64,000 nucleotides of DNA from Vermamoeba vermiformis (taxonomy: Eukaryota): positions 186,001-250,000 of the forward strand of contig JBEWZL010000300.1 in assembly GCA_045837725.1 (NCBI GenBank), in the 5' to 3' direction. Shown piece after piece: positions 966 to 50,150 of the stretch. Each line of letters starts with the position of its first letter. Position 1 is the stretch's first letter. The position numbers were made by a program, and so were the translations under genes. The notes beneath the pieces were generated by a model that made no database searches, was not told where the DNA came from, and worked only from the letters and a program-made list of their open reading frames with translations.

Positions 966-1103
966 GATTATCTACGAACAACCTTGTTAATTTTGTGATT
1001 AGTGTTAATTTTTGTACATAAAACCACTGTGTTAATTTGTAAATGCTACTTTTAGTCTTTTTACAAGTGTTTCATATGTACATAGTATACGTTTTTTTGT
1101 GTT

Positions 1104-4100
1104 TTAAGGTGACGGCGCCTTCCACTTGAAGAAAACGATAATTACAGTCACGTTGTCCATTGAACCCAAGTCAAGTGCTTTGTTAGCCAACAACGAGCTG
1201 ATTTCTTGTGCGGAGTGACCAGCAGTCTAGATGCAAGATAAGTACACGATCGGAACAAAGAAGCTAGCAATGACTTACCATTCGCTCTGCAACAAAATCG
1301 ACTGCTTCTTGATGCGTCATCTTATCCCACAAACCATCGCAAGCCATAACCATGAACTCGTACTCGTCTGTGAGCTGAAGCTTTTGAAGGTACGGATCTC
1401 GTGATACGTAATCAGCCTTGCATAAAAAATTAGTACTATCACCTGTACAATACACGCGCAGACAGTTCGTCGTTCGGCAAAGGAAGCAAGGAGCAAAAAG
1501 AGAAAAAAAAAAGAGGAATCCGACCTGCCGGAATCGAACCAGCGACCTAAGGATTGATGCTTCACTACAGTCCTCCGCTCTACCGACTGAGCTAAGGTCG
1601 GTTTGTTGAATTGTCTCGTGCCGACCCACTGGAACACACCAGTAAAGCATGCCTGAAACTTAATAGCGAAGACTTGGTAGCGAAGAGCGATGCATCGTGT
1701 ACCCGTAGACCGAAGGAGTCGCTAAATTGTAAGCACGGGCTTAGTCGTTAAAGCATTCAGCAAAACGACGTTCTCACCGCAACATTAAAGTTGACCGTTT
1801 CTCGTAATGTAGGCTTGGTTAAAAACAAAAAAATTTAAAGTTAAATGAACGTTCTCATGCCCGTCGACTTCAGCCGGCAGATAGGCAAAAAAGTAAAAAA
1901 GAAATCTCCAACACCGGGAATCGAACCCGGGTCACCCGCGTGACAGGCGGATATGCTGAACCCCTACACCATGTCGGATTGTTGAACGCGGTTTGAGCTT
2001 TTTTCTGCTCGCGCCAGTTCGGTAAACAAACGAGCACGCAAGCCTGCTGCTTTCCCGGAACCGAACCGTCTATCGCAACTCAATATATCAAAGGGAGTGT
2101 GCTTACCTTGACTTTCGGCATCTTGTATTCGGCGTCACCAAGCGACCGCGCAACAGCCAGCTTGCCATAAATTCTGTTCGCTAGGTAAGTAATTTGAACG
2201 TCGCGTAAGGTGTTTGTTTGGCTGACCTGTGTCGGAATACCATGGCACCTGCAGTAGTGATGCGTTCTTTCTCATCGGGGTTGTCTGGCTTGTGCTTGTG
2301 TGTAATGCAGAGCGCCTCGTAATTTGAAGCGTGCATGTCAGATCGCCTGCACATAAGTTAATAACGGTGACGGTTTCCTCTAAAAATCAAATACGTACTT
2401 GGCTAGAACAGCTTCTGAGTCTCCCAAGTTAGCCACGTACAACTCTTCGCCAATAAGAATTGTCATGACCATTGTCGAGCCACTACCGCAAGGACATTAG
2501 CGCGTTATTTAATAACATTCTAACACTAGACTAGACTTACGCTTCAGGCACATTGTCCAAAATAAACAAGTCCGTCTTCTCTACACCGAGTTTAATAGCT
2601 TCTAGAATATCACCGTCCTCAAACGCGTCTTGTGTGACGATATCGCGGTACAATCGTTGACTAGCGATTTCAGAGGCCTCACTTCCGCTGTGTCCGTCAA
2701 AGACTGCGTACAGCGCACGATTGACATTCTTTGTCAAACCATCAGAGGTCTCGTTCAAATCATCGTACATCGTGATCTAACAATATGCGCATTAATATTA
2801 GCAGTCACCAACAAGAATACAAATATTGTTATTAGTATTAGTACGTACTCTGTCTTCCATCGTGGCTCGTTTGCCTTGCAAAGAAGTATGACCAGCTTCA
2901 ACAGCTGATTTGCAAATACTACCGGGCAAATATCGACGAGCAGAGAGCGGTGCCTTTTCTTCTTGCGCGGCGGTTGTTTTGTTCTTCGTGTAATTCACAA
3001 AATTTTCTTTGAGCGCCTTGAGAGTCTTTGTAATCTCCAACAACTCATCCATATTCGAAGCAGCATCGAGATCAGCGTGAATAGTAACAAGCTGTTTTGA
3101 TAACGCTTGAACTGATGCTTTCAACGAGCTTTTGATCGTCACTAATTTTTGCTTTTGACCAATCAGTTCGGGAGTCTCTTGTACACGCACCAAGGTGCGC
3201 TTGGCTGGGATTTTCTATGAAAATGGAATTAGCCCGGCAGTCCGTATAATATTATATTAACCATATTGATTCATCTTATGTTGTTAGAAAACTTGAGGTG
3301 CGTGGATCTGACTTACAGGAAAAATTTTGTCTGCGTTTTGTATTAATTGTTTAAACACTCGCGTTCGCTTCTTAGTATCAGCCATAGTATCAATAGTCTC
3401 TGTTTGAGTTCTGTATAATTTTTAATTAATTTTTTAATTTTGCAGTTGTATTTTGTAGGTCAAAATGAATTACCGGATCAAGAGTGGTCCAAACATAACA
3501 GCCAATTCGTCCAATGATACTTTGTTAACTGCAGAATAGTCCAGTACTAATCTTAAAAATAAGCACAATACTTCAGCGAGTTTAGCATGGTGCGGAGGAA
3601 GTTCTTTGTGAACGAGATCGCGCAGTACAGAAATTGATCCTGAAAAATTAGGATAAATTAAATAGCTCATTATATATTATATAAATCTTGACCATACCTT
3701 CACTATTGATAAATTGAATATAAAGTCGAGAGGTGAATAAGGGATCTGGCAGCTCGCGGAAATACATTTTCAGCAGTGCGGCAACTACGTGCGGATCGAA
3801 TTTCTCGAAGTCATAATCCTCCTTCTCGTCTATAATAATAAAAGGTGACATAATTAGAAAATAATCAAATAATAAATGCCAAGAGATTCGGTAATTTTGA
3901 ATCTGTTCTTCCCTAACTTTACTTACAGTAATCGACGAGCTTCTTCGCTTCATAAACTAAGTCCGGTTGAGGCATATTAACGAAAATTCCTTCAACGCTG
4001 AGATCTATTGAATAATTAGAACGCGGTCAGGATCCTGAAATTAAATTAAATTTGTCTGCAAGTTATAACACGCAAATCCGGATCTAATCATGATCTCGTG

Positions 4101-4248
4101 TCATCATATTATACGTACGATTTTTCAGGCAAAGAATGAGCTCCTTCACAAAGGTCGGAATCTGTTTTTGCGTTGATCGACTCATAATCGCATCCAGCGA
4201 CACCCCAAATACGGGCAATCGGTGTTCATTCTTCGCTGCAGAGCTCAT
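1104..4248 (-). CDS. RhoGAP domain fused to PP2C/PPM phosphatase, multi-exon
   Basis: N-terminal exons VFGVSL..IPTFVKELI, SVEGIF, DPHVVAALLKMYFRELPDPLF, LAVMFGPLLIR (RhoGAP). C-terminal exons GKRATMED, AVFDGHSG, NLGDSEAVL, LAVARSLGD, MACDGLWD, GSMDNVTV (PP2C). Stop at 1104-1106. Confidence 0.85.
1519..1601 (-). tRNA. trnY-GTA: tRNA-Tyr(GTA) with 10-nt intron after position 37
   Basis: CCGACCT acceptor stem, GAGGA-CTGTAG[TGAAGCATCA]A-TCCTT anticodon arm, GGTTCGATTCC T-arm, downstream T-run terminator. Confidence 0.97.
1906..1978 (-). tRNA. trnD-GTC: tRNA-Asp(GTC)
   Basis: TCCGACA...TGTTGGA-G acceptor stem, TCCGC-CTGTCAC-GCGGG anticodon arm, GGTTCGATTCC, T-run downstream. Confidence 0.97.
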
Positions 4249-4435
4249 TACAATATCATGCGTTGATCCTCTGTCAATATCCTTTTTGAATTGTAGTAAA
4301 ATGACTACAACGGTTATTTGAATCAAAAATCTTCGTGGGCCAAAATCTCTCGGACCAAAACGAATCAAATTACACTCTTTTTGCGCTCAGTTGTAATCCA
4401 TGTGGCAGTAGTATAGACAAGCAATCGATTCTCGA

Positions 4436-5754
4436 ATGAATCATGACGAGGCAGTAATAAATTGGACAAATCTGCCTGAAGAGATCTCGCTTCGAATTTT
4501 TCAGTTCCTTGATGTCCTAAATCTTTCTTTTATTATGGGAAGTTGTAAAGTATGGCGCAAGATAGCAGGCGACGATGTTTTATGGCGTCCAATTGTTGAA
4601 GTATCAATGCACATCTCGCAGCTCAAATATCTTCGCTCAAAATTTCCAGATAATGATTGGCACGGCATATTTTTAAAACAAAAAGAGTCAGAAAAGAATA
4701 AATATATTGACGTAAGTAATGCCCCAATTTAAATCAAATTGACAGCATGAAAAAAATCATTTTCGATCTGCCCGAACGTTATATAACCCTGTGTTCGTAT
4801 TAATTTACTAACGCGTATTATTAGGCGATAGAATTTATAAAAAAGAATGTGAAGAAAGGATTTACCTTCTCGGAGCACTTCTCGGGGATCGGATTGACGA
4901 AATTGCCTCCAGAAATTAGACTCTGGAGTAATGTTACTGCACTAGTACTCGCTAATAATAAGTTGCGAACAATACCACCAGAGTTATGCCTCTTGCACAG
5001 CCTTGAATATCTTTACTTGGTAAGTACGAAGCCCAAGCAAATTCTTTCGACTTGATTTGCATTATATCCGCATTAATTAGCGAAATTATCTATAGTAATG
5101 GAATTACCGACATCATTTCAAATCTTTACGCGTATTGTGTAACGAAATTTTACTGTCGAACACGGATCTTCGATTGGTTTTCCATAGCCTCAAATAAACT
5201 CTTTGTCTTCCATATAATAATATATGTTATACTAATAGGAGCAAAATCTATTGTCGACATTGCCTACTGAATTGATTAAAATCAAAAATCTTGAAAGTTT
5301 GACGTTGGATGGCAATCTCTTCCACGAGATTCCAGCGCCGGTGTATCAATTGAAGAAGTTGAAATACTTGTACGCCAAGAACAATTATATACAAGATGTG
5401 CCGATCGATATCACTGCGCTCAAGCACTTGTCAATTTTGGATCTGAGCGGCAATCAGATCGAGTCCGTCACCCCTGGCATTGGCGTCTTGCATAAATTAA
5501 AAGTCCTATTATTACACAGCAACAAAATCAAGGAGATTCCACCGTCGTTGGTCTCCTTGAAGTATTTGGACATCTTACGCGTCCATAACAATCCCCTAGA
5601 AGAGCCTTTCGCTGTGTATGGCGCCGAACTGAAAATGAGCGCAAAAGAAGAAAAAGAAAAGATAGAGAAGATATTTGGATTGTTAAAAAGCATTCATGGC
5701 GATCCAGCCGCATCCGAATCTTCAACCAAAGAAAAAAAATCGAAGAAGAAATAG
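4436..5754 (+). CDS. F-box + leucine-rich repeat protein (3 exons)
   Basis: WTNLPEEISLRIFQFL...CKVWR F-box; repeated LxxLxLxxNxL LRRs; introns ~4712-4824 and ~5020-5238. Confidence 0.9.
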
Positions 5755-5840
5755 AGCGACCCTAAATACGACTGCGTATATGTAAGTTTAAACCATATTT
5801 ACGTTTATGTTACTTATTTTCGTCTGTACATGAAGTTAAA

Positions 5841-8800
5841 TTAGTTACTCGAAGTATTGACTTTCCAATGTTGCAGGGCAGTTCTATTTATAGTGGCAGC
5901 AGAGGCAATACGAACACGCTAACAAAGCTCACGAGCCATGCATAGCCACAGAGTACCAAGAAGCTCGTTAACGGTGACGCGTACAAGGTGCGCATTGAAA
6001 TGTTGACTAGACCCGTCATAATGTTGGCCTGAGAACAGCGATGTATTATTAGAGCAATGCATAGTTATTATGTAAATAGAGTGTTAATACAAAATCGAGA
6101 AAATATTCAAATGAAGCTCAAAAGATCGAAGTTCAGATTCGGATCTGAACTTTGGCAAACACTTACCAATAAGAATACTATTAATTGACTATTACGTGTG
6201 GCACTGATCGATGACAAGATTAAATTGGGCTTGGGCAGAGTGATCAAATCGACACCGAGACACAACGCCAGGATTTGCAAGTTGATCGTCAACACGAGCA
6301 GAGAATACGGCATATTGGCCTAAATAACACGGTCATTAAGTATAGGCCACGAGTATAAAGGTCATATGTATATATTATACTGTTTAATAATATAGTAACG
6401 TACCATACGTCGTGAAGAAGGAACGCCAAAGCGGATCTGCACGAACGAACAAAGAATCCAAGCGAAGAACGACAGCACGGCTAATGCACCTGCAAATATC
6501 CACCAGCCATTTTTAGACTTGTTTTTGTTCACCCAGAAGCCTGTGGCAAATTGCAATGAGTATTTGAAATTGTTCGGTAATTACTAGTAAAAAGGACTTT
6601 CATACCTAATTCAACGCTCATAAAATAAAGACCTAAGTATCCGAGCAAGCTAATAATGCCTTCGCGATTTTGATTGAAAAAATTCGTTCGCGGCGCGTTG
6701 AGAATGTAATTCTCGACCCCAACATGCGTGAGCAGAACTTGGTACGCTATAAGAAAGAACGATGTTAGCAAATTAAATACAATGACAAAAATATCGTAAT
6801 TAATAAATAAATTGCCCATTTAGCAGACAACAAAACATGAATCCGTGGATTCAAATCTGCGAAATTTATCAAAAAGTTGAACCAGCAGAATAAATAAAAG
6901 CTGTCTTTCTGCCAGGCCAAAAAGGTATCGACGCCGATGGGATTTGAACCCACGCGGGACTTCGTCCCAATGGCTTAGCAAACCATCACCTTAAACCGCT
7001 CGGTCACAGCGTCATTTGTTGAAAGTACGCCAGCGGATCAAGGGTGGTCGTGCAAAAGACAAAGGGTTGCCTCTTCGACCGATCGGACATAAAAAATATT
7101 GCGCGTTGTTTGCCATATAAAGAAATTGGGCTCGATAATACTAAAGTAAATTATAGAATTCCGGATCTCTTACCAACCAAGAGCAAGAAGCCAAATACAC
7201 CAGTGAGGTGCACATCCATATCGAGCACAACAGTCACGAGACCAACAATCGCTAAGGTCAAGAAAAAGTTCCAATGTTCACCGTATTCAGTAACGTGTTC
7301 CTAAAAATTAGATCCGTGTTAGTCACGCACTTTAGACCTCATAAATATAGAGCCTATTGAAAATAACAAACTTGCAAATGCAAATTATATATATAGCCGA
7401 CGGATATATCAGCTTAATAGGTAATACAATGGTATATTAAGTAGTGTCTTGGAGTTTAATTACCTGATAGTTGAGTGCTTTGATGATCGTAAATCTGATC
7501 AGACCAACAGCGAGCAGCAGTGCCATTGCTTTCAATGCTGATTTGGCGCGCTGCAACCCTGTCTGTGGCACATGAGCACGTGACAGTTGCGGTGAACTGA
7601 CAGGTGTCACTTGACCCTGATCTGTTTCATTTGCAGTCATTTCTGCTACTTTCTCTTTGCGATACCGTTCAGCACGTGGACTGCCTGGCTTTTTTGGCGT
7701 TAATTTCGGCGAGTCACGTGACTTGTTCGGTGAACTCTCTTTGTCATTGGCTGAACGCGCCTTTCTCGAGACTAGTGCTCCTGAGACTATAAAACATCCA
7801 ACACCCACATCCATCTATAATATAATATTATAATTAATACCTATTATTTTTGGTTGTTCGAACAACGGTGAATTCACAAGAATTTTTTTTTTGCGGTGTA
7901 GGACGAGTAGATCCGCTATAAAATTAAAGAGGTATAACAGTGGTATATAAATAGACTTACCAAGCTAATGCCGTAAGTTTCAGTCTTCGCATACGCCCGC
8001 GGAAATATTCTAAAATCGACCGCGAGGATTGCAATGCAGGTCAACATCATCATGCCCGAGCGATAGGTGTTCAAATAAGGCTTTTTAGTGCTGTTTAACA
8101 GCTTGACACGATCTTTGTCGTCTTTTGATTCTGCCGGCACGTGATGACTCACCGTGCTCTTCGGCGTCTTGGCTCGCTTGCTAAATATGGATTAATAAGG
8201 ATAATTAATCGGCTTATATAATTAATAATAGTTAAATTGAGAATTGCAACGTCGACACCGGATCTGTCAACGCTGGCAAACATAAAAAAACTTCTGAATT
8301 ACTGCGCAAATAAGGTAAATAGGTATATTATTCGTAAATATATCGTATCAATGCGTTAAATTAATAAAATAAATAAATTGAAGGCAGATCAAGTATTGTT
8401 TTTGAAAACTACTTACGCTGTTGCAAAATTGAAGATAGTAAAGCTGAGCATAATGAAGTACATTACAAATGTAGACTGTGTGAATGTACAACTAACGATT
8501 ATAGGCACAATAGTCGTAATGTAATCGAACATAAACTGAAAGAAAGTGGATCTATTTTCAGCTCGTAAAGATTCGAATCTTTTCATTAAACTCCTTTGAA
8601 ATAGCGTAGTGATCTATAAATAAAATAATAAGAAATTGTTAAATATAATTTACAAATTACAGATGCAGGGCATTTTACCGTTACAACTAATAAATTTAAC
8701 AGTAAGAAGCAGTTTGCAATTATAGAGATGGAATATTGCAGTATAATTAATATGACTCTCAATACATACGGGAACTACGAGAATAACGAGCAGTATTTCT

Positions 8801-8877
8801 TCCAGAGAGGATCCTGACAGATTTGAAACAAAATCCTCTTTCTCTTTCTTGTACGTTAATTCGTCAATATCTGCCAT
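5841..8877 (-). CDS. PIGW: GPI inositol acyltransferase PIG-W/GWT1, multi-exon
   Basis: [92 protein letters not shown]. Confidence 0.95.
6929..7013 (-). tRNA. trnS-GCT: tRNA-Ser(GCT) inside PIG-W intron 6747-7173
   Basis: GACGCTG/CGGCGTC-G acceptor stem, ATGGT-TTGCTAA-GCCAT anticodon arm, long variable arm GGGAC-GAA-GTCCC, GGTTCAAATCC. Confidence 0.96.
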
Positions 8878-9543
8878 ATTTTATACGATAAATAAATTAA
8901 TACTGGTCATTGGTCCTCTGCTTCACCAACGGATAAAAGAATAAAAGAGCAAAAACTTTTCAGCGCCGCCATAAATCGAACACACTGGCCGGTAAACAAT
9001 TACTATCCAGATTAAGAAGAACGATTTTAATAGGGATGACCCTTTATAGTTTCATAGACAGGCAGATCTTGCTTTTTTCGAAATTATTTCATTTTAATTC
9101 ACTTCTTTCATACAGATCGACCTTCTGCCAAGTTAAAGTAATAAAGCCCCACATAACATCTTATTTGATAATATTGTGGCTAAATAAAATTAATTGGGAA
9201 GACAGATCCGATTATAAAAGGATACTCTCAGGGCTACGTACATATTTGGGTAAATCGAGAGTAATTACATTGTAATCGGTTGTATTACAATAATATAAAT
9301 TAATGCTTTGGCGGGGTTTGTACGAGTTTGTACGGTTTGGACGAGTTAAATCTACCGTCAGGGCACGAATAGAACGAATCTGTAGCGAAAAATATTCTAT
9401 CAACTCTAAAATTTATTTATCGAAGGAAATTGCATAGCGCGTGCCGTCGGTACATAAATACCGGCTGGACCTAGGTACATTATTTAAGTGGACATAAATA
9501 CCGTTGTTTCTTCTAGTAGCCGGATTCAAAAGGTTGATTAACG

Positions 9544-9690
9544 TTACTTGCCCAAATTAAGGGTGGTTCCCATGGGAGCGGAGCTGTATTCCACTTGATC
9601 TTGTTGGGCCCAGACGATAGTCACGCAGCCTTCACCTGCTTCCCAAGCATTGAAATTGCAGTAAGGGCGGTCATCCGTATTGTAGTCCAT
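9544..9690 (-). CDS. Small ORF, 48 aa, unknown function
   Basis: MDYNTDDRPYCNFNAWEAGEGCVTIVWAQQDQVEYSSAPMGTTLNLGK; ACC-ATG context; GC-richer than flanks; below ORF-track cutoff. Confidence 0.5.
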   Translation of the reverse strand: MDYNTDDRPYCNFNAWEAGEGCVTIVWAQQDQVEYSSAPMGTTLNLGK

Positions 9691-10034
9691 GGTAGCGGTG
9701 GTAGTGGTGATGTGTAGTGAGCTTGATTGAAATTGATAAAAAAAAAAAAAATTTGTACCAAAAGCGTAAGTTGAGAAAGCGGACCTGCAGATTTTCGCCT
9801 AAAGCGTACGAAATTTCAGAAGGTCCGTTCCCGCGCGGTCGAAATTTGAACTCTATAATTTTAATTACACGGCACTGTATTGAGCGCTTTATTGCTATAA
9901 ATTGATGCTACATTACATGACGATCAATGACGTTAATTTTTTTGTCAAACCCAAAATTTCGTTTAGTTTAGGGGAATGGCCCAATATAATATAATCGTCA
10001 ATATTAGATTAAATAATAAATAAATAATATTCTT

Positions 10035-11969
10035 TTATTTTGTCTTTTCAGTGGATTCAAGCTGTTTCTTCGCGCTCAGCTTCAACACGTACTCGTACAC
10101 CATCAATGTAATGCCCGACGCCGGTGCACTCAACAAAATTCTCGGTAATAATCCTCGCGTTAATGATTTCAATCCTTCTTCAGCGACCATTGTTTTCAGA
10201 CCTTGAAACGTGTTTTTGTACAGCAACGTGTGTTGCGTCACTGTGCCTGGCGCTGCTTTTGCGATGAAATCTTGGGTCTGTAAACGCACTTTAATGACAT
10301 CGATGGGATTGCTCACTAACGATGCGGTGATGCCTTGATAATACTAAGAATTAGTATGACTCATTAGCAACAAAAAAAATTGGATCTGGATCCGTGAAAA
10401 AATTGAACGGAAATTTCGTTGCATAATGATAAAAAGGCATTATTTGACTATATATGGCTATTGCGATTATAAAATAGTGTGAAAAAAGTGAAATTTCACG
10501 TACCTGCAGCAGCACCAGCTGTCGAATGTACTACGGGTGATTTTTCATTTTTGAATTTTTCTCGTAATTTGTCTCGCCAAGTCATAGTCTTATCGCTCTT
10601 AATATTACTGATACTACTAGTATTAACTATATTGGTTGCATTTGCAGCTGTCGTGGTGTCATTTGGTAGCGTTGATATTTTATCGTATTTTCTAGCGTTC
10701 CTCGTGATCAATTGTTTGGCCTTTTCATACGTCACCCACCACGTGGCACTGGCAGGAGCTGCAAAAATAAAATTAATAAAATAACACCTTATAACCAAAT
10801 ATGGTAATATTGATTGAAAATTTATAAATTATATATATTAAACCGAAAATTGATAGAATTAGAGTAAGACTAGTAGTTTAAAGTATAGTGTACCTGTAGC
10901 TAATATACTAGCGCCAAATCCTTTCCATAGTCCTCGAATTCCTTCTTCTTTCGCAATTAGGAAAAATGCTTGCACTCCGTTTTTATATCTTTCGCCGTGT
11001 GTTGAGCTTTGAATCATTAAACGCGATGATACGACGTCTATAGGTACCTGACAATATAAATATTACACTAATAGACAAAACTAGCGGCATTTTATATTTT
11101 TGAAAGTTAGATGCGATTTGTACTGGCAAAATTCTTGATACTATGTACAACTACAACTGTGCATATATTATTTCTGTATTTAATTACGTACCCAAATCAA
11201 TGTAGAAGTGAAATCAGCGATGACTCCGGCGCTCAAACAGACCAATGCACTATCGGTGTTTGGTTCGCCAGAAGGTTTAGCGAATTGTTTGGCTAAATAG
11301 CCTTTAGAGAAGTTATAGGCACCAAAGTATACGAGTTCTGATGGTAGACCCTATTATTAATGCGTTAGAATTAATTGAACGAATTTTCTTTCATTTTGGA
11401 TTTAGATCTCGGCCTTGAAATTGAGCTACGTACCGCTATTTGCCACCATAAATAGCCTATAATTATGTAATATGATTAGTGCGTCGTTAAGCGCGAAGAA
11501 ATTTGGTGAGTTCATTTTGCAGCGCTGAGATCGGATCGTTTACGAATAAATTAATAATACATCAATATTATTCAATATTAATTATTCTTACTATATTAGT
11601 GCTTATTTTTCTTGACGGAGTTCGCGATTTGTGCGATCCGGATCAGCGTGAATTAATTATTACGACATTAATTTCAACAATTTTTAAAATTAATTAAATT
11701 ATTATCCCAATGCTGTCTATTACTATGACATTATACTGACCTTTATATAATCCTCTTAAACCTGATTCTCGCGTCACTTCTTTGAATACACGTGGCAGAT
11801 CCGAAAAGATCTTGACATTGCCTTGTCGCTCGACTTGCATACGAGTCTTTAATAATTTCATCGGGTAAAAAAACACCGATTCGGCAATGGATCCGAGACT
11901 AGCAAACAAAGCAAACTTTTTGACGTCGATCTCTTCGCCATTGGATCCGTGCAGGAGGTTGGAGAACAT
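10035..11969 (-). CDS. Mitochondrial carrier (SLC25 family, SLC25A44-like)
   Basis: Three carrier repeats YPMKLLKTRMQ, VPIDVVSSRLM, NPIDVIKVRLQ with GLRGLYKG, GIRGLWKG, GLKSLTRG. Confidence 0.92.
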
Positions 11970-12289
11970 AAATTAAATATGGATGTATATGTAGTATATA
12001 CAGAACAATAAATAAATACAAAAACAACTGTTTGTGCAGCCTTCGACCGTAGAAAAATTTTGTCGTTTATTTTCACGTGGCTGATCAACCGGTCACAATA
12101 ATTAATCGATATTCAATCTAATTATACTACTATAAGTGCCTCATAATAGTACTATAATTAGCGCGATAATGCAAATTTGAAGGGGTCAGGAATGAATCAC
12201 AGGACAAGAAAAATCCCAGAGTGGACGTTTGAATGCATCGCTGATTAAATAAATTATTGCAAAAATTACAACTTACAATAGCAGCAACA

Positions 12290-14503
12290 ATGGAGCAGAA
12301 ATTGAGCCAAAATCAACAAGTTCAACAGAGTTTGGATTCACCGTGGGCAGATTTAGCGTTACTCTCCGATTTTATGAGCAAAGAGCTCGTTAAAAAAATA
12401 GAATGGCGTGATGTCAAATTATTTATGGCTGTTAATCACAGCTGGCAGTCATTCTTCGGAGCAGATGCCGTCTGGAAATCATTGCTCGAGCAGCAGTATC
12501 CCTACCAAGCCGAAAGCGTTACAAAAGATTATTTTAAATCATTTAAGCATTTTTATGATTTATCCAACGGTAAGTAACGATTTTCAACCACATCTAAAAA
12601 ACCGAAATTTTATTTTTACCTTATTTAAGCTTCAAAAACTCAATCAATATTATTTTTACTTATACCCTAATTATAGGACTCCAATGCCCACATAAAGATG
12701 CAGCTCACGAAGGATCTGAGCGAGTTTGTCCGTGCGTGTTCAAAACTTTCATTACAGAGCGTAAAAACGCCCGTTTTATAGGCGTCGCTCGGAGATTTAC
12801 CGGAGTTAAATCGGAATATTATTATTGTTCTCCTACCTGGGAAGACGATTGTCCCTGCTCGTCAGGACCGACCGAAGATCGATTGTACAGATCTTATCCT
12901 GTCGTCTGCAAAGATTGCATGGATTTTATTATAGATGACAGCTATGTAGGACAACATATCGGAATGCCCGAAGAACAAATGCAAAGACTGGATGCGGAGT
13001 GGATCCACGAAGAATTTGTGTCGCTGTACAAATTTGATGCAATTAAAGCTATTCCAGGAAGCGAAAAATACATTGCAATTATTAAAGACCCTCGTAAGTA
13101 CTCATTTACGATAAATTATCACTCTCAAAGTGTCTTGTCAAAGTGACACGTGTCAAACATATTTTTCACAGCTGATTTTTTTTCCTTTTTTAGATCAAAT
13201 TGTGCTCGTAACATTCAAAGACAAACACGTGCATATAGAGCCATTGCTCCAAGAAGAAGAATTGACCAAGTTGTTGACCCTCGAGAAGCCATCCAAACCT
13301 GCTACTGAAGGTGACGAAAATGATTCTGATGACGATGATAATTACGATGCCCCGGACGATAATCAGCCGAAAAAGTTTGACTGCGTTGAGGTCTCTGCTT
13401 GTGGCAAATATGCAGCCATTTGTCAGGTATACAAAACCAGAGCTTTCGTGTACAATCTCAACGACAAGCGAGTTACATTTACACTACAGGTAAGCACAAT
13501 ATTTCATCTTAAATAATATATTAACAAAATATTTATATCAGTTGTATCACTAACAAATGAATTTTTATAGCGTGGCAATTATCAAGTACGAAATTCATCG
13601 TTTCCTTTGTCCTTCTTTACGCACGAAGGCAAGACACTGCTAATAGCTGGAAAACATTGGAACTACCTCGAAGTATACGACCCCGAGACTGGTGAAGCAC
13701 TGCGATCACGTGACGGTAAGAACTTTATTACCAAATTAGGAAAAGTTGGTCTAACATCGCTCCTCACAGTGACGGGCAAGCATTTGGAATTGTTCTGGTG
13801 CAGTTTAGAAGTATCACCCGATCAAAAATCAGCGTGCTCGTATGGCTGGGTGTGGCATCCCGTTGGAATGTTGGCTAGTTTTTCACTCGAAGATTGGATG
13901 ACCAAAGATATTTTTGCCAGCGAAGTACGCGTTGCTTTTCTTGTACATTGAAAATTCCTAACTTTTTTCTTAGAACGCAAAAATGGCGTTAGATTCTGAC
14001 ATGTGGGATACTGCTTTTTGCTTCGTTGATAATGACACGGTGGCGCTGTGGACTGAGACGAATTTAACTGGAATAGAAAACGAAATTGAAGTAGTGACGC
14101 CTTATGGAATCAACACTAAAAGACAAAAGAAGTCTGATATTGTTTTGGGCTATAATATTAAGACCAGTAAGTTTTTTATATGAAAATTTAAAACGGATCC
14201 GGGCATCCCACCAAAACAAACTTTTAAAATCTTATTTTAGGACATTTCACTCGCTTGGCTCTTCCAAATATTACATTTTATAATATAATGATGATCGATG
14301 GCTACCTCTATAGTCTTGATAAGAATGTCGGCATTCAAGTTACGGATCCAAAGAAAAACATCATTTTTAAGGTTAAAAACTGGACTCCAGCAACACTTGA
14401 ACTCATTCACGGCTACAACGCGCACACGAAACAATTCTTATCGCGCATGGCGTCGAATGAACATGCAACGACTTACTTGTTGTCGCACATCCAAAGGCAA
14501 TAA
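12290..14503 (+). CDS. Multi-exon protein of unknown function; weak F-box-like N-terminus and beta-propeller-like C-terminus
   Basis: Consecutive ORF pieces joined by GT-AG introns; LFMAVNHSWQ..DAVWKSL resembles an F-box end; VSACGKYAAI and VSPDQKSA are WD/PD40-like. Confidence 0.6.
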
Positions 14504-14733
14504 ACATGTAAATACATAATTGGTTTTAACTTCACCTTTGAACCTGAACCGATTCAGTCAAAAGTGTCAATTTGACACGTGTCAAAGTAAACCTCTGTGC
14601 TTATATGGGTAGTGCACCTACAGACCTAGTGGTTCCGACCGATACATCAAATGTTGTAATAACAAATGGGCGGAACTACTTCCAGGTTCAAAAATTATTC
14701 TTTGCTGCTTTTTTATTCAACAGCAACCTATCA

Positions 14734-16204
14734 TCATTCATAAAAATAGTCCTCCAACCAAGTCATTTGCTCTCGCAGCCAATCACTGGCGACTGGAAAG
14801 CCGCCAATCAACGGCGTAAAATCCAGTACGCGCAGTGACGTCAGCACGGTGTAGTATTCTTGGTTGATTTGGCCTGTGTATCGCAGGGACAGCTGCGTCA
14901 AGTGCGATAATGCTGTCAAACTGCAAATGATTGGTCCATCGGGTGAGTCGCAGCTGTGAATTAACGACTCTAATGTCGTGCATTTTGTAACGTTTGACCA
15001 AAATTGACCGGACTGGATCGGCATTTGATTGCGGAATAATTTTATCGGAGCTATTTCGAGGAACTTGTAATCGCTATTATCGTTCAATTCGACGATTAGA
15101 TCCGTCAAATTTTTCATGAAACACAAGTCGCTTTCGATAGTCGAAACACAAACGTCCAGCAAGCACAATTCTTCCAAATTCGTTAGAGCTGATAATGAGG
15201 CATTTAAAGTCAGATCCAAATTGCTTCTACGAGGGACTTCCAAGCTGAGCACTTTTAACTTTGTCAATTTTGAAATTTCCTCGAAATCGTGTATATTCTT
15301 GGTTTGAACACGAATGCTCGTCAAATTAGTTAATACAGACATATTGATTCTGCCAGTTGGTTCCATTAGATCGTGCTCGTAAATTGTCAGATATTTCAAA
15401 TTTGTTAATCTCGATAAATCTCTGTAGTAGATCTGCTGGTAGGCGGCTATGTATAGGTGTGTTAATCGATTCGAATTAATGAACCTCAAGAATTGACTGT
15501 CCACTGCATATTCAGGTCCACTTCCAGTGTCAACATGCAATTCTTCAAGATCTGTTAACGAAGCCAAAAACGAGCTATCTTTCATCTTCAAAGCCATATT
15601 TAAATGGCGTAGCTTCACTAAATTTGATATAGTTGAATTTGAAGAGTTTTTAGCTGCGACAAGCCAGGTTAGGTTTGTGTTATTGCTGAGATCCGCGTCT
15701 GGCCAAGTAAGTAATAATTTCTTCAGTGCTCGCAATTCACTGAACGGAAAGTCCGTACGAACCGCTGAATAACCGCAGTCGAAATAAGTTAGGTTGGACC
15801 AATATGGTATTAGTGATGACGGAGCGTCACGAGCGAAAGAGCATTTGTTCAGGTTGGTCAAATCCGTCAGTTTAAGCAAGTCCTCCCCGTTGACAAACAA
15901 CTCGCGAGTCTGTAATGCTGATAAATTCGACAATTTTGATATATTTTCCAACAAATCTCCGCTATCTACAGGTCCAGGTGGGTTGATCCTGAGGCTGATC
16001 AAAGTAGTGCTGTAATATTTCAGTAACCGGTCGCACACGTCTGCAAAATTAGGGGTAATTTCTTCTTGTAAAATCACAAAGTCTGTGCTGAATAATAAGG
16101 CTCGAAACAATCTGTTAGTGGCTCGTGTTGCGCGCACGGTACTTTGATCCAGGTATGATAATATCTGTTGCACAATCTCTTTTGGCAGACTATCAAAACC
16201 GCTC
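14734..16204 (-). CDS. F-box + LRR protein (5' end uncertain)
   Basis: FDSLPKEIVQQILSYLD..RATNRLFR F-box followed by many LxxLTNLxxL repeats in a 479-aa exon. Confidence 0.85.
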
Positions 16205-16553
16205 TAAAATTGCATATAATTAATAAGACATAATTTTTAAAAATAGTGGTGTTTCCCGTGTAGAATCTGATCTTAAAATCGTTGAAGACGGCAATTTACG
16301 ACAAGCGCGATTATTCATGCTTTAGAAATTCTCATGACATTATTACCTTGGATATTTCCATGGTTTAGTGGTGCGTAAATCGAAAACGAGTTGTGAAATG
16401 GATTTGGGAGCAAACACGATTTTTTATTGTACAACGCTCCAATGTTTGTAAGTTTTTCCGTTAATATCATTTGTGTGCTATTTACAGAGCTTTTGTTGTA
16501 TTCTCTATTCATTTTCGGTACATGAACAGAAAAACAAGAGGATCCAAAAGTTT

Positions 16554-18244
16554 TTAAAGTCCTTCGTTCAAGACCTCAAAATTATAGCGCAGCTTGTCTT
16601 TTGGACTTTCTTCGTGAAAACTCGACGAAGAACTAGAGCCCCAAAAGCTAGAACTGCTGCCGTACCGACTCGTTTGCTGCGCTGGCTCGGGCTGTGTCTC
16701 GCGCACGACTTCAATCGTCTTGTCCTCGAGCAGTCGTTTCAGCACTTGACTGCTTTGCACTTCAACTGTCTCGCTGCCCAAGTTTGAGATCTGATGTAGC
16801 AGCGCGTCTTCACTCTTTGGCAACGAAGTCGCTGGCTGTGCGTTGATCCAACTCTTAACGCGCGTCACAAGTGTCGCTTTGGTGTCAACTTCTTTGCCGT
16901 ACGAGTCCCAGCCCCATTGCGAGCTGTGTCGAGCGCTGTACGTGTTCACTGATGTACTCGGAGCCGCTGCATTTGTCGATTCAACGCGGCCCGGGAAGAA
17001 CTGTGAGCCACACGCAGCACACGTGCTGATAAACCCTTCGCGGCGTAACTCGTCGAAGCATTCTCGAGGATCTAACGGCTTTTTGATCGTGCACATCTTC
17101 GCGATCGAGTTTTGGAACTTAGCGCGGGTCTTGGGAAGATTCTGTGGACGTTCTTTGCACGAATTTATCCACTTTTTCACGCGGTTGACAGCAATGTCTA
17201 GATCTGGCAGTCCCATGTCAACGTCATCGACACTCGAGTTCGAGCCATTTGACGACTTCATGCCACTACGGAAGCCTTCGCTTGCGAGCTCGTGGCTGGA
17301 CTTCAAAGCAGTGAAGTTCATGCTTTGGATGACTTCGTTCTTGAAGGGAATCAAGTGACGCAAGAGATTGGCTCCAGTGTCTTTCTTCAAATCGACAATA
17401 TCGAGCACGCGACTCTTTTGAAGCTCACTGATGACTGGCAGCTGTCTGATGTTTTGGTTGGCTGACATCAGGGTCATTTTAGTCGACGACGGCAACAACT
17501 TGTGCATCACGTAGCAATAATAGCCGAATACTGAGAGCCATCTAGAAGGTATAATTAGCTCAATGCTCGCATCTCTAATATTAAAATAACGTACCCTGGT
17601 TGTTTCTTCAATCGCTTGGGCATCAATCGTTGAGCATTCGGAGCCATTCTGTGCGAACAAGTTGTTTTGCAAGTCGCGCAGGCAGGTGCAAAGAACGAAT
17701 CTTTGCAGAATACGACGATAGCGCCCTCGGGAATAGTCTTCGAATAAAGCAAATGAAACACCATTGGTCCGATCCCGGATGCACGAATGCTATTTAAGTT
17801 TGTTTCGTTAATTTCACCAATGTTAATAATTTAAACTTGATACGTACCTCTCAATATCAACTAATACGCAGAAGGTAACCGCTGCTGGAATATCTGTCTT
17901 CAGCTGTTGGATTTCGGCCTCCTTTAGGTTGATCGCGCTGAAATTTTCAGGAGTAGAGTCTGTAAGCATTATTTGTTACTCTATTATCATTTTTAGGGAA
18001 TTTATAGTCTTACCAACCCTTTGCTTTTTCTTAGGCTGTTCTACGACCTGTTCTTCAGAATTCTCTGTCGTAAATAATTTTAGTTTTATTTACAACTAGA
18101 GTATAATGAAGGCAATATATTCGTGGCTGTAGAAAATAATAAGGAAAATTTTAAAATAATTAATCGATCATTTTAAATTTCAGATCGTGACTTACCCTCG
18201 GCATCCATTACTGCCCAATCGCCCCACTTTGATGATCCACTCAT
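16554..18244 (-). CDS. Unknown protein with possible NYN/PIN-like N-terminal domain and duplicated C-terminal module
   Basis: Spliced model MSGSSKWGDW...FCVLVDIE...KKQPG|WLSVFGYY; C-terminal repeat RVKKWINSCKERPQNLPKT / RVKSWINAQPATSLPKS. Confidence 0.6.
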
Positions 18245-18485
18245 GATGTATACTTCTCGTGTGTTGTTACTATCTTTTCTTCATAACGAGTTTTGCGAGT
18301 ATTTAAGCCTGCTCTTGGATTTTCCGACAATTTTCTGGCCAGAATCAGTTTGTCCACAAAATATCAGAACTTTCCGCAACCATTCCTCTGTGAATACGAA
18401 GAGACCAGATTATAGATCATTTCCCCTCGAGAGAAGCTTGCAATTTGAAGTATGGAAGCTTTCGTTCTAGTAGCGTAGATCGGCC

Positions 18486-21400
18486 CTACTTGGCAGGTTT
18501 CTTCTTTGCGAGCGAGCACAACATCGTTAAAATAATGTCGAACATCTCTCCAAAGCCTTCCATCGTCTTCGCGGACCCTTCGACATAACAACCGTCGATC
18601 TGACAAGTAGCAAAGAATTAAGTCTGGATCTAGGACCAGTTCGATAGCGTACCTTCTCAGCATACTGACAGCGCTCTGTATGCTCAGGTTGATGCATGTT
18701 TCTTTCTTCGGGTGTCATAAGGTCGAGCTTGGTTCCGAGCAACAATATCGGTGCTTGCGCGTTCTTCTCTCGTGCCCAAGGAACCCACTAAAAAGATAGA
18801 TAGAAACTTAGTACTAATCCCTGTACAATACACGCGCAGACAGTTCGTTGTTCGGCAGGGAAAGCAAGGAGCAAAAAGAGAAAAAAAAAAGAGGAATCCG
18901 ACCTGCCGGAATCGAACCAGCGACCTAAGGATTGATGCTTCACTACAGTCCTCCGCTCTACCGACTGAGCTAAGGTCGGTTTGTTGATTTGCCTCGTGCC
19001 GACCCACTGGACCACACCAGTAAAGCATAAAGCAGGCTGAAACTTTCAGACAAACTGAAAAAAGGGTCGCGAAGAGATGATTGATTCGCGTCACCGTAGC
19101 TAGCTTGCCGAAGGAGTGTCGCATTGCAAGCACGAGCAGCCTTCAAGCAAAACGACGTTCTCACCGCAACATAAACCGTTCTCGAAATTTAGGCTTGGTT
19201 AAACACAAAAAATCAATAAATAAATTAATTTCAAATCAATTTAAGTTCAGACGAGAGCTAGTGAAGGCATAGGTATTTAAGCAGGCCAAAAAGTAAAAAA
19301 TAAATCTCCAACACCGGGAATCGAACCCGGGTCACCCGCGTGACAGGCGGATATGCTGAACCCCTACACCATGTCGGATTGTTGAACGCCGTCAAAGCTT
19401 TTTTCTGCTCGCCCCAGTTCGGTAAACAAACGAACTCGAGCCTTGCTGCTTTCCCGGACCAGAACCGTCTTCGCAACCCAATATATCAAAAGGGGTGGCT
19501 TACCTTGAGTTTGACATTGCGGAATGATTCGGCGTTGTCCAAAGCAAACACGATGACGATACAGCAGGCTACAGGGAAGCACAGGTTGAGCTTGGAAACC
19601 ATGTCGGGATGGTCACCAATGTCCCACAATTCAACTTCGTTGCCGTCCACTAAAAGGTTTGGTTAATCCAGATAACCAAGTTAGGTAGTAGTTACAACGT
19701 ACATTTCACTTTTGTCATGTCAAAAGTTGAAGGCGTGTATTGGGTTGGGAAGGCTCCTAATTTAGCCTAGGATATAAGTTAGTTCACATTCGTTCAAGCC
19801 TTGAGGGTACTTTGCATACCTTAATTGCGGCAGTTTTGCCACAGTTTGCATCACCAACGAACAACACGATTTGATTCTTGCCGAGCTTGACTTTCTTTCG
19901 TGCATCTTCACGGTACTTCCAGCCACGCATTGCTTTCTTGACAATTAATGACTCACCACTCTCGTAGTATTTGTAGTCTCTGCCTTCTGTCAGATTTTGA
20001 GGCAATCCTGATTTGGGTAGTGCAGGCAAAGGATCTTCATATACGGGAACATGGGTACGCGGGCTCGTTGAAGGTCTAGGCGGCGGTGTTTCTTCAGCAG
20101 GGTCAGGTTTGTCAGGCACCGTTGGTGAAGGGTTGGGTCGTGGTGGCGGGCTCGGATCAGATGGAGGCATTGGCGGCGGAGGTTGTTTTGGCACGCGCAT
20201 TACGAGTGGTGATTTTGGTTTAGCGTTACCAGCCGGTACCTTGACTGTGGCAGGTTGTTTAGGTGCAGGTTGAACAGGCGGCACAGGCTTTTCTTCGACT
20301 GGCGATGCAGTGCTTGGGGTGGTAGGTGCCGAGGAGGATGTTGAAGTGCCCTTCGGACTTTTTGTTTTAGCCAAGGGAATCTTTGGCAACGGCTTCTTAG
20401 TGTGTGCATTCGGCAGATCCGAGTTCCGCGGTGACAGGTTCAGATTGTCAATAGCAGGAATGGCACTTGGATCAATTGTATTTCTGCGTTTAGGTGCTGC
20501 GGGACTTGGTGCTAAACTGTTGGTGGTTTGCGGGCCTTGCATGCCTATCTGAGGCACGTGCTGTTGGTGAGCTTCGTTGGCCATTGGAGCAGGCACAGAC
20601 ATGGGACGCGGTGGTTGTTGAGTAGGCAACATCACGGGCACGTATTGTGGATTAACGTCGCCCGCTGGACTGATGTTGATTTGTGGCGGTGGTGCGGAAT
20701 AGTTATGTGTGGGGGGCATACTTTGAGGCTGAATATGCTGGTGTGGTGGCATGTGCTGGTGCATCATTGGTTGGTGCTGATATTGGGGTGGCGGCATATG
20801 ATTATTGTGCTGATGTACTGGCATCGGAGGCACCGCCGTGGGTTGTGGTGGGTACGCGGATCCACCATCGTGCATTGGTACTTGTGGATACTGCGGCGGT
20901 GGTTGATAAGAATTGTAGTGCTCAGCATGCATGAACTGACCTATATATATGAAAGTATTTAGCGACAATAGACTTTTATATTTCGTCTTACTTGGAGGTG
21001 GGGTAGAAAATACACGTGATGCTCGATTGACCGGTGGTGGTCCACCAAGCGGTGCTGAACAGAATAAAACGTTTAAAAATGGTGTATAATAATAAATAAA
21101 ACATACGTTGATTAGGCATTATATTTGGTTGTTGATAGAACTGTGGATCTGGTTGTAACATCCGCGAGTTCCGATCGACGGGTGGTGGAACATTGTTAAA
21201 TGATGGCATCGGATTATTATCATAATACGGCTGATTTGGAGGGTACGGCGTGCTATTATAATTGTCTGCAGGCTTGGAGTAACGATTTACTGGTGGAGGC
21301 TGATCTGCTTGCGAAATTATGATTATAAATCGTGCTTGTAATATTATCATATTATTTCATTAATAGATACGATTTACAAGCCTTATATTGCTTCTTAAAA

Positions 21401-49140: not shown

Positions 49141-50150
49141 TCAATGAAAAGGATCATGAATTCGAGAACAAAATGGACATGCGCGAGGACCAGTTGGCAC
49201 TTCGTGGTCAACCCATTGGCCTAACTCGCGTAATTCGTTTCTGTTCCTCTTTTCGTACGAGCGAATAGTTTGGTACAACCACTTTTGAAAATCGTCTTGG
49301 ACCACGTGACAGGTGTCGTATAGTTCGTCAATGGTGCCTGCGTGCACTGCAGCATTGAGTTTGTCCAGGTTTTTCCTGATCATTTTGAGAAAGTCGCGCA
49401 AGCTAATCCCAACTTGGTCTTCAAACGCTTGAACAAAAGAGTCCTCGATCCAATTACTTTGCAGGTAGTTGATATATTGCGCGATTGTCGGGTAGTCGTT
49501 GGCACCGAGATTAGGAAGATCTTCAGGGTAGGTCGTTCCGAGTCTGTCGCAAATCTGCCGCGGTGATGTTAGAGCAATTTGGCGCGGCTTTGCAGGACTT
49601 ACACTTTTGAGGAAATGAGTGCAACAGTGACGAGCTTGAACGCGACCCAACTGTTTCATTTTCTTCTTCGCTTCCTTGTTGTAACCATCGTCTTCGTCCT
49701 TTTCTGCGTCCAAACTCAGCATGGCTAAATCGGTAGTTTCTAACAGCTCCTTCTCATTTTCTTTTCTTAACTCACGGCACTCTTCAATGCAAATATCCAG
49801 TTCTAGTTGCTGGTTCAGGATTTGTAGATTTATTTTCTTAAACTGTCTTTCCATTTCCTTTTGCCGTCTTTCTCTTTCGTTTTGCCATTTTGCTTCAAAT
49901 TCCTTTTGCAATCTTTCTATTTCGTTTTGCCATCTTGCTTCAAATTCATGTAGCCATCTTTTTCGTTCCTCTTGCCATCTTTCTCTTTCGTTTTGCCATC
50001 TTGCTTCAAATTCCTTTTTCATTTTTTTTTTTTTTTTTATCTTGCTTCAAATTCCTGTAGCCATCTTTTTCGTTCCTCTTGCCATTTTTCCAGTTCCTCT
50101 TGCCATTTCGCTAGAGCCCGCTGCTTCACCGCACGCGTTAATATCCGTCG
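49141..50150 (-). CDS. Coiled-coil repeat protein interrupted by a poly-A run (artefact or pseudogene); upstream exons likely
   Basis: EFEARWQNE(R/I)ERWQ/LQ repeats continue upstream of the A17 run at 50022-50038; splice donor near 50445. Confidence 0.5.
49855..50110 (-). repeat. Coding tandem repeats of GAATTTGAAGCAAGATGGCAAAACGAA / TGGCAAGAGGAA units
   Basis: Several near-identical units visible directly. Confidence 0.85.

Follow-up and report, generated by a model that had tools for sequence, protein, structure and literature searches.

A tRNA gene pair shared by the introns of two unrelated genes in Vermamoeba vermiformis: possible ectopic copying between existing introns

Introduction

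How does the same intron, carrying the same pair of transfer RNA (tRNA) genes, come to lie in two unrelated protein-coding genes? The question is raised by a 64,000-nucleotide (nt) stretch of Vermamoeba vermiformis DNA (contig JBEWZL010000300.1 of assembly GCA_045837725.1, positions 186,001 to 250,000; referred to here as the window and numbered from its first base), a segment of an intron-rich eukaryotic genome with a G+C content of 41.4%. On its minus strand, a spliceosomal intron of a PP2C phosphatase gene (1417-2106) and an intron of a Rho/Rac-like GTPase gene (18788-19503) are homologous to each other, and each contains a tRNA-Asp and a tRNA-Tyr gene. An initial annotation of the locus proposed that the intron had moved as a unit, by lariat reverse splicing, by introner-type transposition, or by ectopic conversion of an existing intron. 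That the homology forms a unit is upheld by the analysis described here, and of the three routes the last fits best, while reverse splicing is weakened by the unlike 3' tails of the two copies. The explanation favored here, with a probability of roughly one half, is that the interior of an intron was copied at the DNA level, by ectopic copying or gene conversion, between two pre-existing introns, and that the tRNA pair was duplicated in the process.

Extent of the homology between the two introns

The PP2C copy is a phase 0 spliceosomal intron of 690 nt that reads from GTAAGC through TAGTACTAAT to a terminal CAAG. The Rho copy, of 716 nt and also phase 0, begins with the same GTAAGC and runs through TAGTACTAAG to TTTTTAG, with its junction placed by homology. 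A pairwise alignment that took in 1380-2150 and 18750-19550 on the minus strand pairs the introns over their full length in 828 columns, with a mean column identity of 87%, in agreement with the earlier claim of homology. The similarity starts at most 1 base from the donor hexamer, which is CAAG/GTAAGC in both genes, and ends at TAGTACTAA, the branch point. Between these limits, identity is 88% from the donor to the tRNA-Asp gene (110/125), 75% in the 3' flank of tRNA-Asp (30/40), 72% in the central spacer (139/192, with 35 gap columns), 92% in the 5' flank of tRNA-Tyr (47/51), and again 92% from the 3' end of tRNA-Tyr to the branch point (82/89). The tails that lead from the branch point to the AG are unlike, with 8/13 identical positions and 10 gap columns, the PP2C tail consisting of 13 nt with an AAG acceptor and the Rho tail of 20 nt with a TAG acceptor. 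The flanking exons are at background, with 23/44 (52%) and 20/34 (59%) identical positions. Thus the tract from donor to branch point, and the differing tails, are as first described, and exons at background in genes with PP2C and Rho-like domains likewise agree with the earlier conclusion that the hosts are unrelated and the pair is not a segmental duplication.

Mismatches are unevenly spread along the tract. The outer blocks, namely the 5' block between donor and tRNA-Asp (1979-2106 in the PP2C copy) and the 3' block that begins with the tRNA-Tyr terminator and continues to the branch point (within 1417-1518, which includes the unlike 13-nt tail), differ at 26 of 265 sites, as against 63 of 232 sites in the central parts (Fisher p = 6e-7). 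This patchy divergence suggests repeated conversion, or constraint on the outer blocks, rather than a single neutral copy. A predicted duplex between the 5' and 3' blocks has an energy of -52.1 kcal/mol in the PP2C copy and -58.0 kcal/mol in the other, compared with shuffle means of -42 to -48; between 2 and 26 of 300 shuffles equalled these energies, the figures for the PP2C copy being 11/300 and 26/300. Such pairing would bring donor and branch point together and lends modest support to the idea of constraint. The fold of the whole intron is unremarkable compared with shuffles (z = -0.94).

The 5' block also holds, at 2057-2067 on the minus strand, the T-arm-like sequence GGTTCGGTTCC, which matches the T-arm and B box of both tRNAs at 10 of 11 positions, is more decayed in the Rho copy, and may be the remains of a third tRNA gene. 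When the intron was scanned with Rfam at a low threshold, the two tRNAs were all that was returned, with no tRNA at 2057-2067. The PP2C copy has the direct repeat CAAGG (5 nt) at its two ends; the Rho copy has no target-site duplication around it, and a repeat search reported no inverted repeat between the two intron termini.

Splicing and the host genes

Reads were mapped over positions 1000-8000, and the Rho junction is thus based on homology. The two raw RNA runs that were used, X21 and X23, carry the same species label and are 5-20% unlike the window over most reads. Their joints, coming from a diverged strain, could equally reflect absence of the intron there, and it is the near-identical transcript contigs of X4 that carry weight. 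Over 1000-8000 most reads of the RNA runs are less than 95% alike to the window, with fixed differences at many exon sites. Sequence relationships and labels disagree in these data, as the RNA runs that share the species label of the best DNA run are diverged and X4, which bears another label, is near-identical.

An RNA joint from 1415 to 2106 (GT..AG, cut +1) skips exactly 1417-2106, all 690 nt, and reproduces the PP2C junction that had been drawn from the sequence; it is found in 8 reads of X21, 21 reads of X23, and 1 transcript contig of X4. The exon upstream of the intron (2107-2173, minus strand) ends in LAVARSLGDAEYKMPKVK and is delimited by this joint and by one from 2173 to 2227 (X4). 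The downstream exon (1279-1416, minus strand), which reads ADYVSRDPYL...ACDGLWD..., is delimited by the same joint and by one from 1226 to 1279. Both exons match the Pfam PP2C profile (E 1.6e-14 for the downstream exon), positions 161-181 and 186-231 of which fall on either side of the intron.

For the Rho-like gene, the exon upstream of the intron (19504-19649, minus strand) contains DGNEVELWDIGD and ends in SFRNVKLK; it was identified by direct reading, by alignments with RhoA and Rac1 from the PDB, and by the Pfam Ras profile (positions 50-91, E 0.1), and its upstream boundary is predicted. The downstream exon (18653-18787, minus strand) begins with WVPWAREKNAQAPILLLGTKLDL, was identified by direct reading and Rac alignments (residues 97-119), and has a predicted downstream boundary. 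Against Rac1 chain 1foe_B the left exon corresponds to residues 43-96 and the right exon to residues 97-119, with neither gap nor overlap, at weak E values of 0.039 and 0.45. Accordingly, the suggestion that the tRNA pair was duplicated without breaking its hosts finds support in the splice joint of PP2C and, by homology, in the contiguity of the Rho exons on Rac1.

Ordinary introns within 1000-8000 are 52-163 nt long, and 11 of the 12 RNA-supported acceptors are TAG or CAG; the PP2C tRNA intron has the sole AAG, that is, non-YAG, acceptor among the 12. In both genes neighboring short introns have been retained on both sides, 67-146 nt away, as seen from RNA joints in PP2C and from prediction in Rho.

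The Rho/Rac-like gene as a whole (18653-21118, minus strand) encodes DIGD in place of the DTAGQ of Rho proteins and is preceded by a 444-amino-acid open frame rich in P and Q. The protein may carry a long extension at its N terminus and be atypical, or inactive, as a GTPase.

The tRNA genes

ARAGORN and Rfam find five tRNA genes in the window, all on the minus strand and all in the sense orientation relative to the host, and the three loci that they form are all inside introns. The tRNA-Asp(GTC) genes of the PP2C intron (1906-1978, 73 nt) and of the Rho intron (19306-19378) were both identified by ARAGORN and score 56.2 bits against Rfam RF00005; the former is directly preceded by TCAACAA (1979-1985) and followed by T-runs. 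The second gene of each intron (1519-1601, followed by T10, and 18897-18979) is 83 nt long, includes a 10-nt intron, and scores 59.7 bits in Rfam. As the initial annotation had stated, the genes are identical between the two introns, at 73/73 and 83/83 positions, the label tRNA-Tyr resting in part on general identity rules. By default ARAGORN labels the 83-nt gene Thr(agt), with the intron not modelled; when run with -i, it places a 10-nt intron at 35/36, giving the anticodon GTC, and moving that intron to 37/38 gives GTA. The cloverleaf shows a C1-G72 pair and A73. The canonical site of eukaryotic tRNA introns is 37/38, and C1-G72 together with A73 are identity marks of tRNA-Tyr; on the strength of these rules we provisionally take the gene to be tRNA-Tyr(GTA).

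As judged from their sequences, the tRNA genes have RNA polymerase III (Pol III) signals of their own, namely internal A and B boxes (the B boxes being GGTTCGATTCC) and a T-run terminator, with runs of T6, T10 and T5 after the genes. Each is a complete gene within a spliced host intron, splicing of the Rho intron being recognized by homology only. The heptamer TCAACAA occurs 0-2 nt upstream of all five (1603-1609, 1979-1985, 7016-7022, 18981-18987 and 19379-19385, minus strand) and also before a tRNA-Asp in contig L001 of a relative (at about 2259-2265); it has 39 occurrences in the window, with 18.3 expected, and is put forward as a candidate for a Pol III start or upstream element peculiar to this lineage.

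The fifth gene, tRNA-Ser(GCT) (6928-7014, minus strand; ARAGORN and Rfam), lies in the sense orientation within a 427-nt intron of the GWT1 gene (6747-7173, minus strand), for which X23 has a joint from 6744 to 7185 and on the two sides of which the Pfam GWT1 profile continues (209-247 and 251-295). The orthologous GWT1 intron in L002, a contig of the relative (1072-1341, 270 nt), is without a tRNA. Read directly, it retains TTTGTCTTTTGCAC...TCAACAA upstream and the T5-GCC flank downstream, and roughly 14 nt stand where the gene would be. This looks like clean loss, or gain, of a nested tRNA-Ser gene.

Age of the intron positions

The similarity between the two introns could be as old as the introns themselves or could have arisen later, and diverged relatives bear on this point. 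A metagenome scan with the PP2C exon 2849-3214 led to two contigs of one species (99.9% identical to each other over 1368 nt), both 89% identical to the query protein. Compared with the window, four exons of this relative are 83% identical, and six ordinary orthologous introns are 48% identical, which is saturated. In L001, the PP2C ortholog has an intron at the same codon boundary (CCAAG/GTAAGC, donor G2203), and this intron contains a tRNA-Asp that is identical to that of the window at 73/73 positions and lies 66 nt past the donor, as against 128 nt in the window. No second tRNA, and hence no tRNA-Tyr, was found in the remaining 390 nt to the end of the contig. The non-tRNA DNA of the L001 intron has no significant similarity to the window cassette, as in five comparisons 147-357 of 1000 shuffles reached the observed score. 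A 19/31 match between the upstream flanks of tRNA-Asp in L001 and the window, noted by eye, was dropped as evidence of direction when the local alignment proved insignificant against 1000 shuffles.

The Rho position is also occupied in another relative. A search with the unspliced exon open reading frame (ORF) returned P0001, the Rho ORF of that relative (78% identical), which reads ...NVKLK/VSNIYIHKM; its VS corresponds to a GTNAGY donor at the same K, and the start of this intron is unlike the cassette. Because the PP2C and Rho sites are occupied in L001 and P0001, both positions, as well as the residence of tRNA-Asp in the PP2C intron, predate the 72-92% similarity between the two window introns. 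Furthermore, since these paralogous introns are 72-92% identical and ordinary orthologous introns are at 48%, the copying is far younger than the split between the species. What is found is therefore a non-allelic tract of similarity with unrelated flanks that is younger than the loci in which it lies. The gain of new introns that the initial annotation had entertained does not agree with a PP2C intron that already carries tRNA-Asp in L001 and a Rho donor at the same site in P0001. Of the states that it had envisaged among orthologs, the tRNA-bearing state is seen for PP2C and an intron donor for Rho, and the intron-absent state was not seen in these two sequences.

Copy number and the search for a family

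A repeat search of the 64 kb found just these two copies (families D2, D3, D7 and D10, two copies each). In the DNA run X1, summed contig depth rises only over the tRNA genes, reaching 10682.8 at position 1600 compared with about 360-520 for single-copy contigs, figures that apply to the contigs listed and are not equivalent to copy number. In the non-tRNA 5' block, at 2039-2044, X1 depth is 620.9, about 1.5 times single-copy, and two contigs are found there with indels that fit the Rho copy. Other tRNA-Asp contigs in X1, among those listed, lose similarity at 1912, 1914, 1957 and 1985, and in X4 the similarity of a second tRNA-Tyr contig ends at 1492 and 1609. Neither the window repeats nor the X1 and X4 contigs listed point to a family larger than these two copies. 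A metagenome scan for tRNA-Asp and tRNA-Tyr separated by 300 to 330 nt (Asp-N{300,330}-Tyr) had 0 matches, as did exact-block scans of genome-contig and viral-contig collections. A protein search with the ORF made up of tRNA-Tyr plus the PP2C exon had 5 matches, none spanning both intron and exon, and one with the ORF of the 5' block plus tRNA-Asp had no match.

These results bear on the proposal that the two introns belong to an active introner-type mobile element with tRNA cargo, which makes new introns in many genes. In its favor, each copy coincides with a whole intron in an unrelated gene, and the PP2C copy is flanked by the CAAGG direct repeat, so that its unusual AAG acceptor could stem from a duplicated target. 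Nevertheless, such an element is very improbable. Only two copies are seen; the Rho copy is not flanked by a direct repeat, and the repeat search reported no inverted repeat linking the two termini; both sites are intronic in diverged relatives, the PP2C site already with its tRNA-Asp; and the metagenome, genome and viral collections contained no match. A search of the open literature (subscription journals being outside it) found, by titles and the starts of abstracts of the papers listed, no introner with tRNA cargo. The introner-type family put forward in the initial annotation is for these reasons not retained.

The X1 contigs could also be read as a sign that one copy is misplaced or collapsed in the assembly, since the single-copy contigs break at 1470 and 2099, just within the intron. 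Such an artefact is hardly credible. The copies differ at approximately 13% of columns and by many indels, and so both must exist; X1 contig 1 (1000-1470) runs from the exon 53 nt into the PP2C intron; spliced RNA places the intron exactly at the PP2C site; and the relative's L001 has, independently, a tRNA-Asp intron at that site.

The excess depth over the tRNA genes also recalls a third possibility, in which a dispersed Asp-Tyr cassette was inserted independently into two existing introns and the resident DNA was later trimmed. On this view, selection for splicing would have produced the extent from donor to branch point as a side effect. Genes for tRNA occur in many copies and give rise to new ones elsewhere in the genome (PMC4981973), the depth of 10682.8 at position 1600 is far above single-copy, and 3/3 tRNA loci of the window are in introns. 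However, in both genes similarity runs from within 1 base of the donor to the branch point, which two separate insertions could match only by each landing beside the donor and losing all resident DNA, and the other tRNA-Asp and tRNA-Tyr copies in X1 and X4, among those listed, are without the shared flanks. Independent insertion is accordingly considered improbable.

A proposed route for copying between existing introns

Copying between two resident introns would proceed as follows. As autonomous Pol III units, tRNA genes would have been lodged within sense-strand spliceosomal introns of a eukaryote whose introns are short. A tRNA-Asp has been resident in the PP2C intron since before the split from the relative with 83%-identical exons, and the Rho site, equivalent to the boundary between K96 and W97 of Rac1, is likewise old. 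Much later, the interior of one intron would have been copied over that of the other, through gene conversion or through repair of a break within the recipient with the other intron as template. The copied tract, tRNA-Asp and tRNA-Tyr included, would begin near the 5' splice site and finish shortly after the branch point, leaving the recipient with the tail to the AG that it already had. The tract ends lie at the only sequences common to unrelated introns, namely GTAAGC plus the AAG of the exon end at the 5' side and TACTAA at the 3' side, and may reflect microhomology; in an ordinary intron of 50-160 nt, any break would fall within a few dozen bases of the splice signals. The outcome would be a second copy of the tRNA pair, with both host genes still spliced.

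Three considerations lead us to infer an event at the level of DNA. The recipient apparently kept its own tail and acceptor (13 versus 20 nt, AAG versus TAG); the intact short introns 67-146 nt away leave little room for a complementary DNA (cDNA) tract; and ectopic conversion is known to act on identical tRNA genes (PMC4981973). As to direction, PP2C to Rho seems more likely because tRNA-Asp is ancestral in PP2C.

The first two considerations also bear on RNA-mediated intron transposition into an occupied site, whereby the excised tRNA-bearing intron would be reverse-spliced at the exon junction of the other gene's messenger RNA, reverse-transcribed, and brought in by recombination of the cDNA, with the resident intron swapped out. 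Such a route would explain why the unit of homology is the intron itself, starting at the donor, and why both sites are pre-existing intron positions, the more so as a review places suspected reverse-splicing events mostly at previously intronic positions (PMC3443670). Yet a whole 3' end is expected of this process, and the tails differ in length (13 and 20 nt), in sequence (8/13 identity) and in acceptor (AAG and TAG); homology over the full length from 5' to 3' splice site, as expected of reverse splicing, is not what the alignment contains. The short introns kept 67-146 nt away would also require a very short cDNA tract, and a lariat of 690-716 nt full of folded tRNAs would seem a poor substrate. 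RNA-mediated transposition is considered unlikely.

Several points weigh against DNA-level copying as well. Neither the donor nor the recipient state is seen directly, as L001 ends before the PP2C acceptor and the Rho intron of the relative with P0001 is known from just 9 read-through codons. Conversion normally needs flanking homology, and outside the tRNA genes only microhomology appears to be available here. A further candidate for such microhomology, an 8/9 match between the exon ends AAAGTCAAG and AAACTCAAG, was set aside as uncompelling, given that among 11 other introns one already reaches 7/9 when set against the exon end of PP2C. The GTAAGC donor is found in 1 of the 12 RNA-supported introns, and this hexamer may have been copied with the tract instead of being pre-existing microhomology. 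The first 9 bases of the tails match at 6/9 by eye, which leaves room for a full-length copy followed by indels. Finally, the estimate of copy number rests on the contigs listed in one table, in which depth is not copy number, and the Rho junction has the support of homology only.

A broader proposition is that spliceosomal introns serve as vehicles for tRNA genes in this lineage, entire tRNA-bearing introns moving with their splice signals into the intron sites of other genes by RNA or by DNA. We regard it as doubtful. If it were true, tRNA families would expand from intron to intron with coding sequence untouched, and these two introns would be the first pair to be caught in a wider process.

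Comparison with nested tRNA genes, transposed introns and introners

Nested intronic tRNA genes have been catalogued in Caenorhabditis, where they make up 43-44% of tRNA genes, 56% of them in the sense orientation, and where 52% of the host-tRNA arrangements of C. elegans are conserved in C. briggsae (PMC3342880, PMC4999229). The V. vermiformis genes resemble these in that complete tRNA genes lie within host introns, in that the pairing can be conserved in orthologs (PP2C and tRNA-Asp in L001), and in apparent loss without change to the host, as may be the case for the tRNA-Ser of the GWT1 intron in L002. They differ in that ordinary introns here are tiny (52-163 nt) and the tRNA cassette is nearly the whole intron, and in that 5/5 tRNA genes are in sense, compared with 56% in C. 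elegans. The portions of the Caenorhabditis accounts at hand (PMC3342880, PMC4999229) do not describe two hosts that share an entire intron sequence. Going by sequence, it is this sharing of a whole intron by two unrelated hosts, up to the splice signals, that is unusual with respect to known nested tRNAs.

Intron transposition, described in Mycosphaerella and Oikopleura, also yields homologous introns in different genes, with suspected events mostly at previously intronic positions (reviewed in PMC3443670). As there, introns at unrelated positions share sequence and the sites were previously intronic. Unlike those cases, homology stops at the branch point and not at the acceptor, and the introns contain two functional-looking tRNA genes that would be able to seed DNA recombination themselves. 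Introners of Micromonas and fungi, which number hundreds of copies and represent recent gains at formerly intronless sites (PMC3609843, PMC3879977, PMC11282704), have in common with the present pair that the repeat unit is the intron, that it is found in unrelated genes, and that it is longer than ordinary introns. In contrast, there are two copies here, at old sites; no inverted repeat was reported between their termini, and a direct repeat that might be a target duplication is seen at one copy and not at the other.

A parallel to the favored DNA-level copying is the concerted evolution of dispersed tRNA genes by ectopic gene conversion, which is established (PMC4981973). Here too, identical tRNA genes at unlinked loci provide the homology, and identity peaks in and beside the tRNA genes. 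In contrast to conversion of tRNA genes alone, the tract reaches 89-128 nt beyond the genes to the splice signals and covers a spacer of 304-326 nt.

How old an intron position is and how old the sequence filling it is are two separate matters, easily confused. Near-identical introns in unrelated genes are the usual signature of introners and of intron gain, and here they lie at old positions, where similarity alone would lead to a false call of gain. The locus also offers a concrete and datable example of how a compact genome can gain a second copy of a tRNA pair while its coding sequence is left intact. Should more such pairs be found genome-wide, copying from intron to intron would be indicated as a recurrent path by which tRNA genes turn over, its tracts bounded by splice signals.

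Other features of the window

Two further repeats lie elsewhere in the window. Positions 49801-50112 are occupied by a degenerate tandem array with a unit of 21-24 nt. Between 31239 and 34289 there are three related blocks of 42-83 nt, at spacings of 1356 and 1653 nt, an arrangement that suggests tandem paralogous genes at 31-34 kb.

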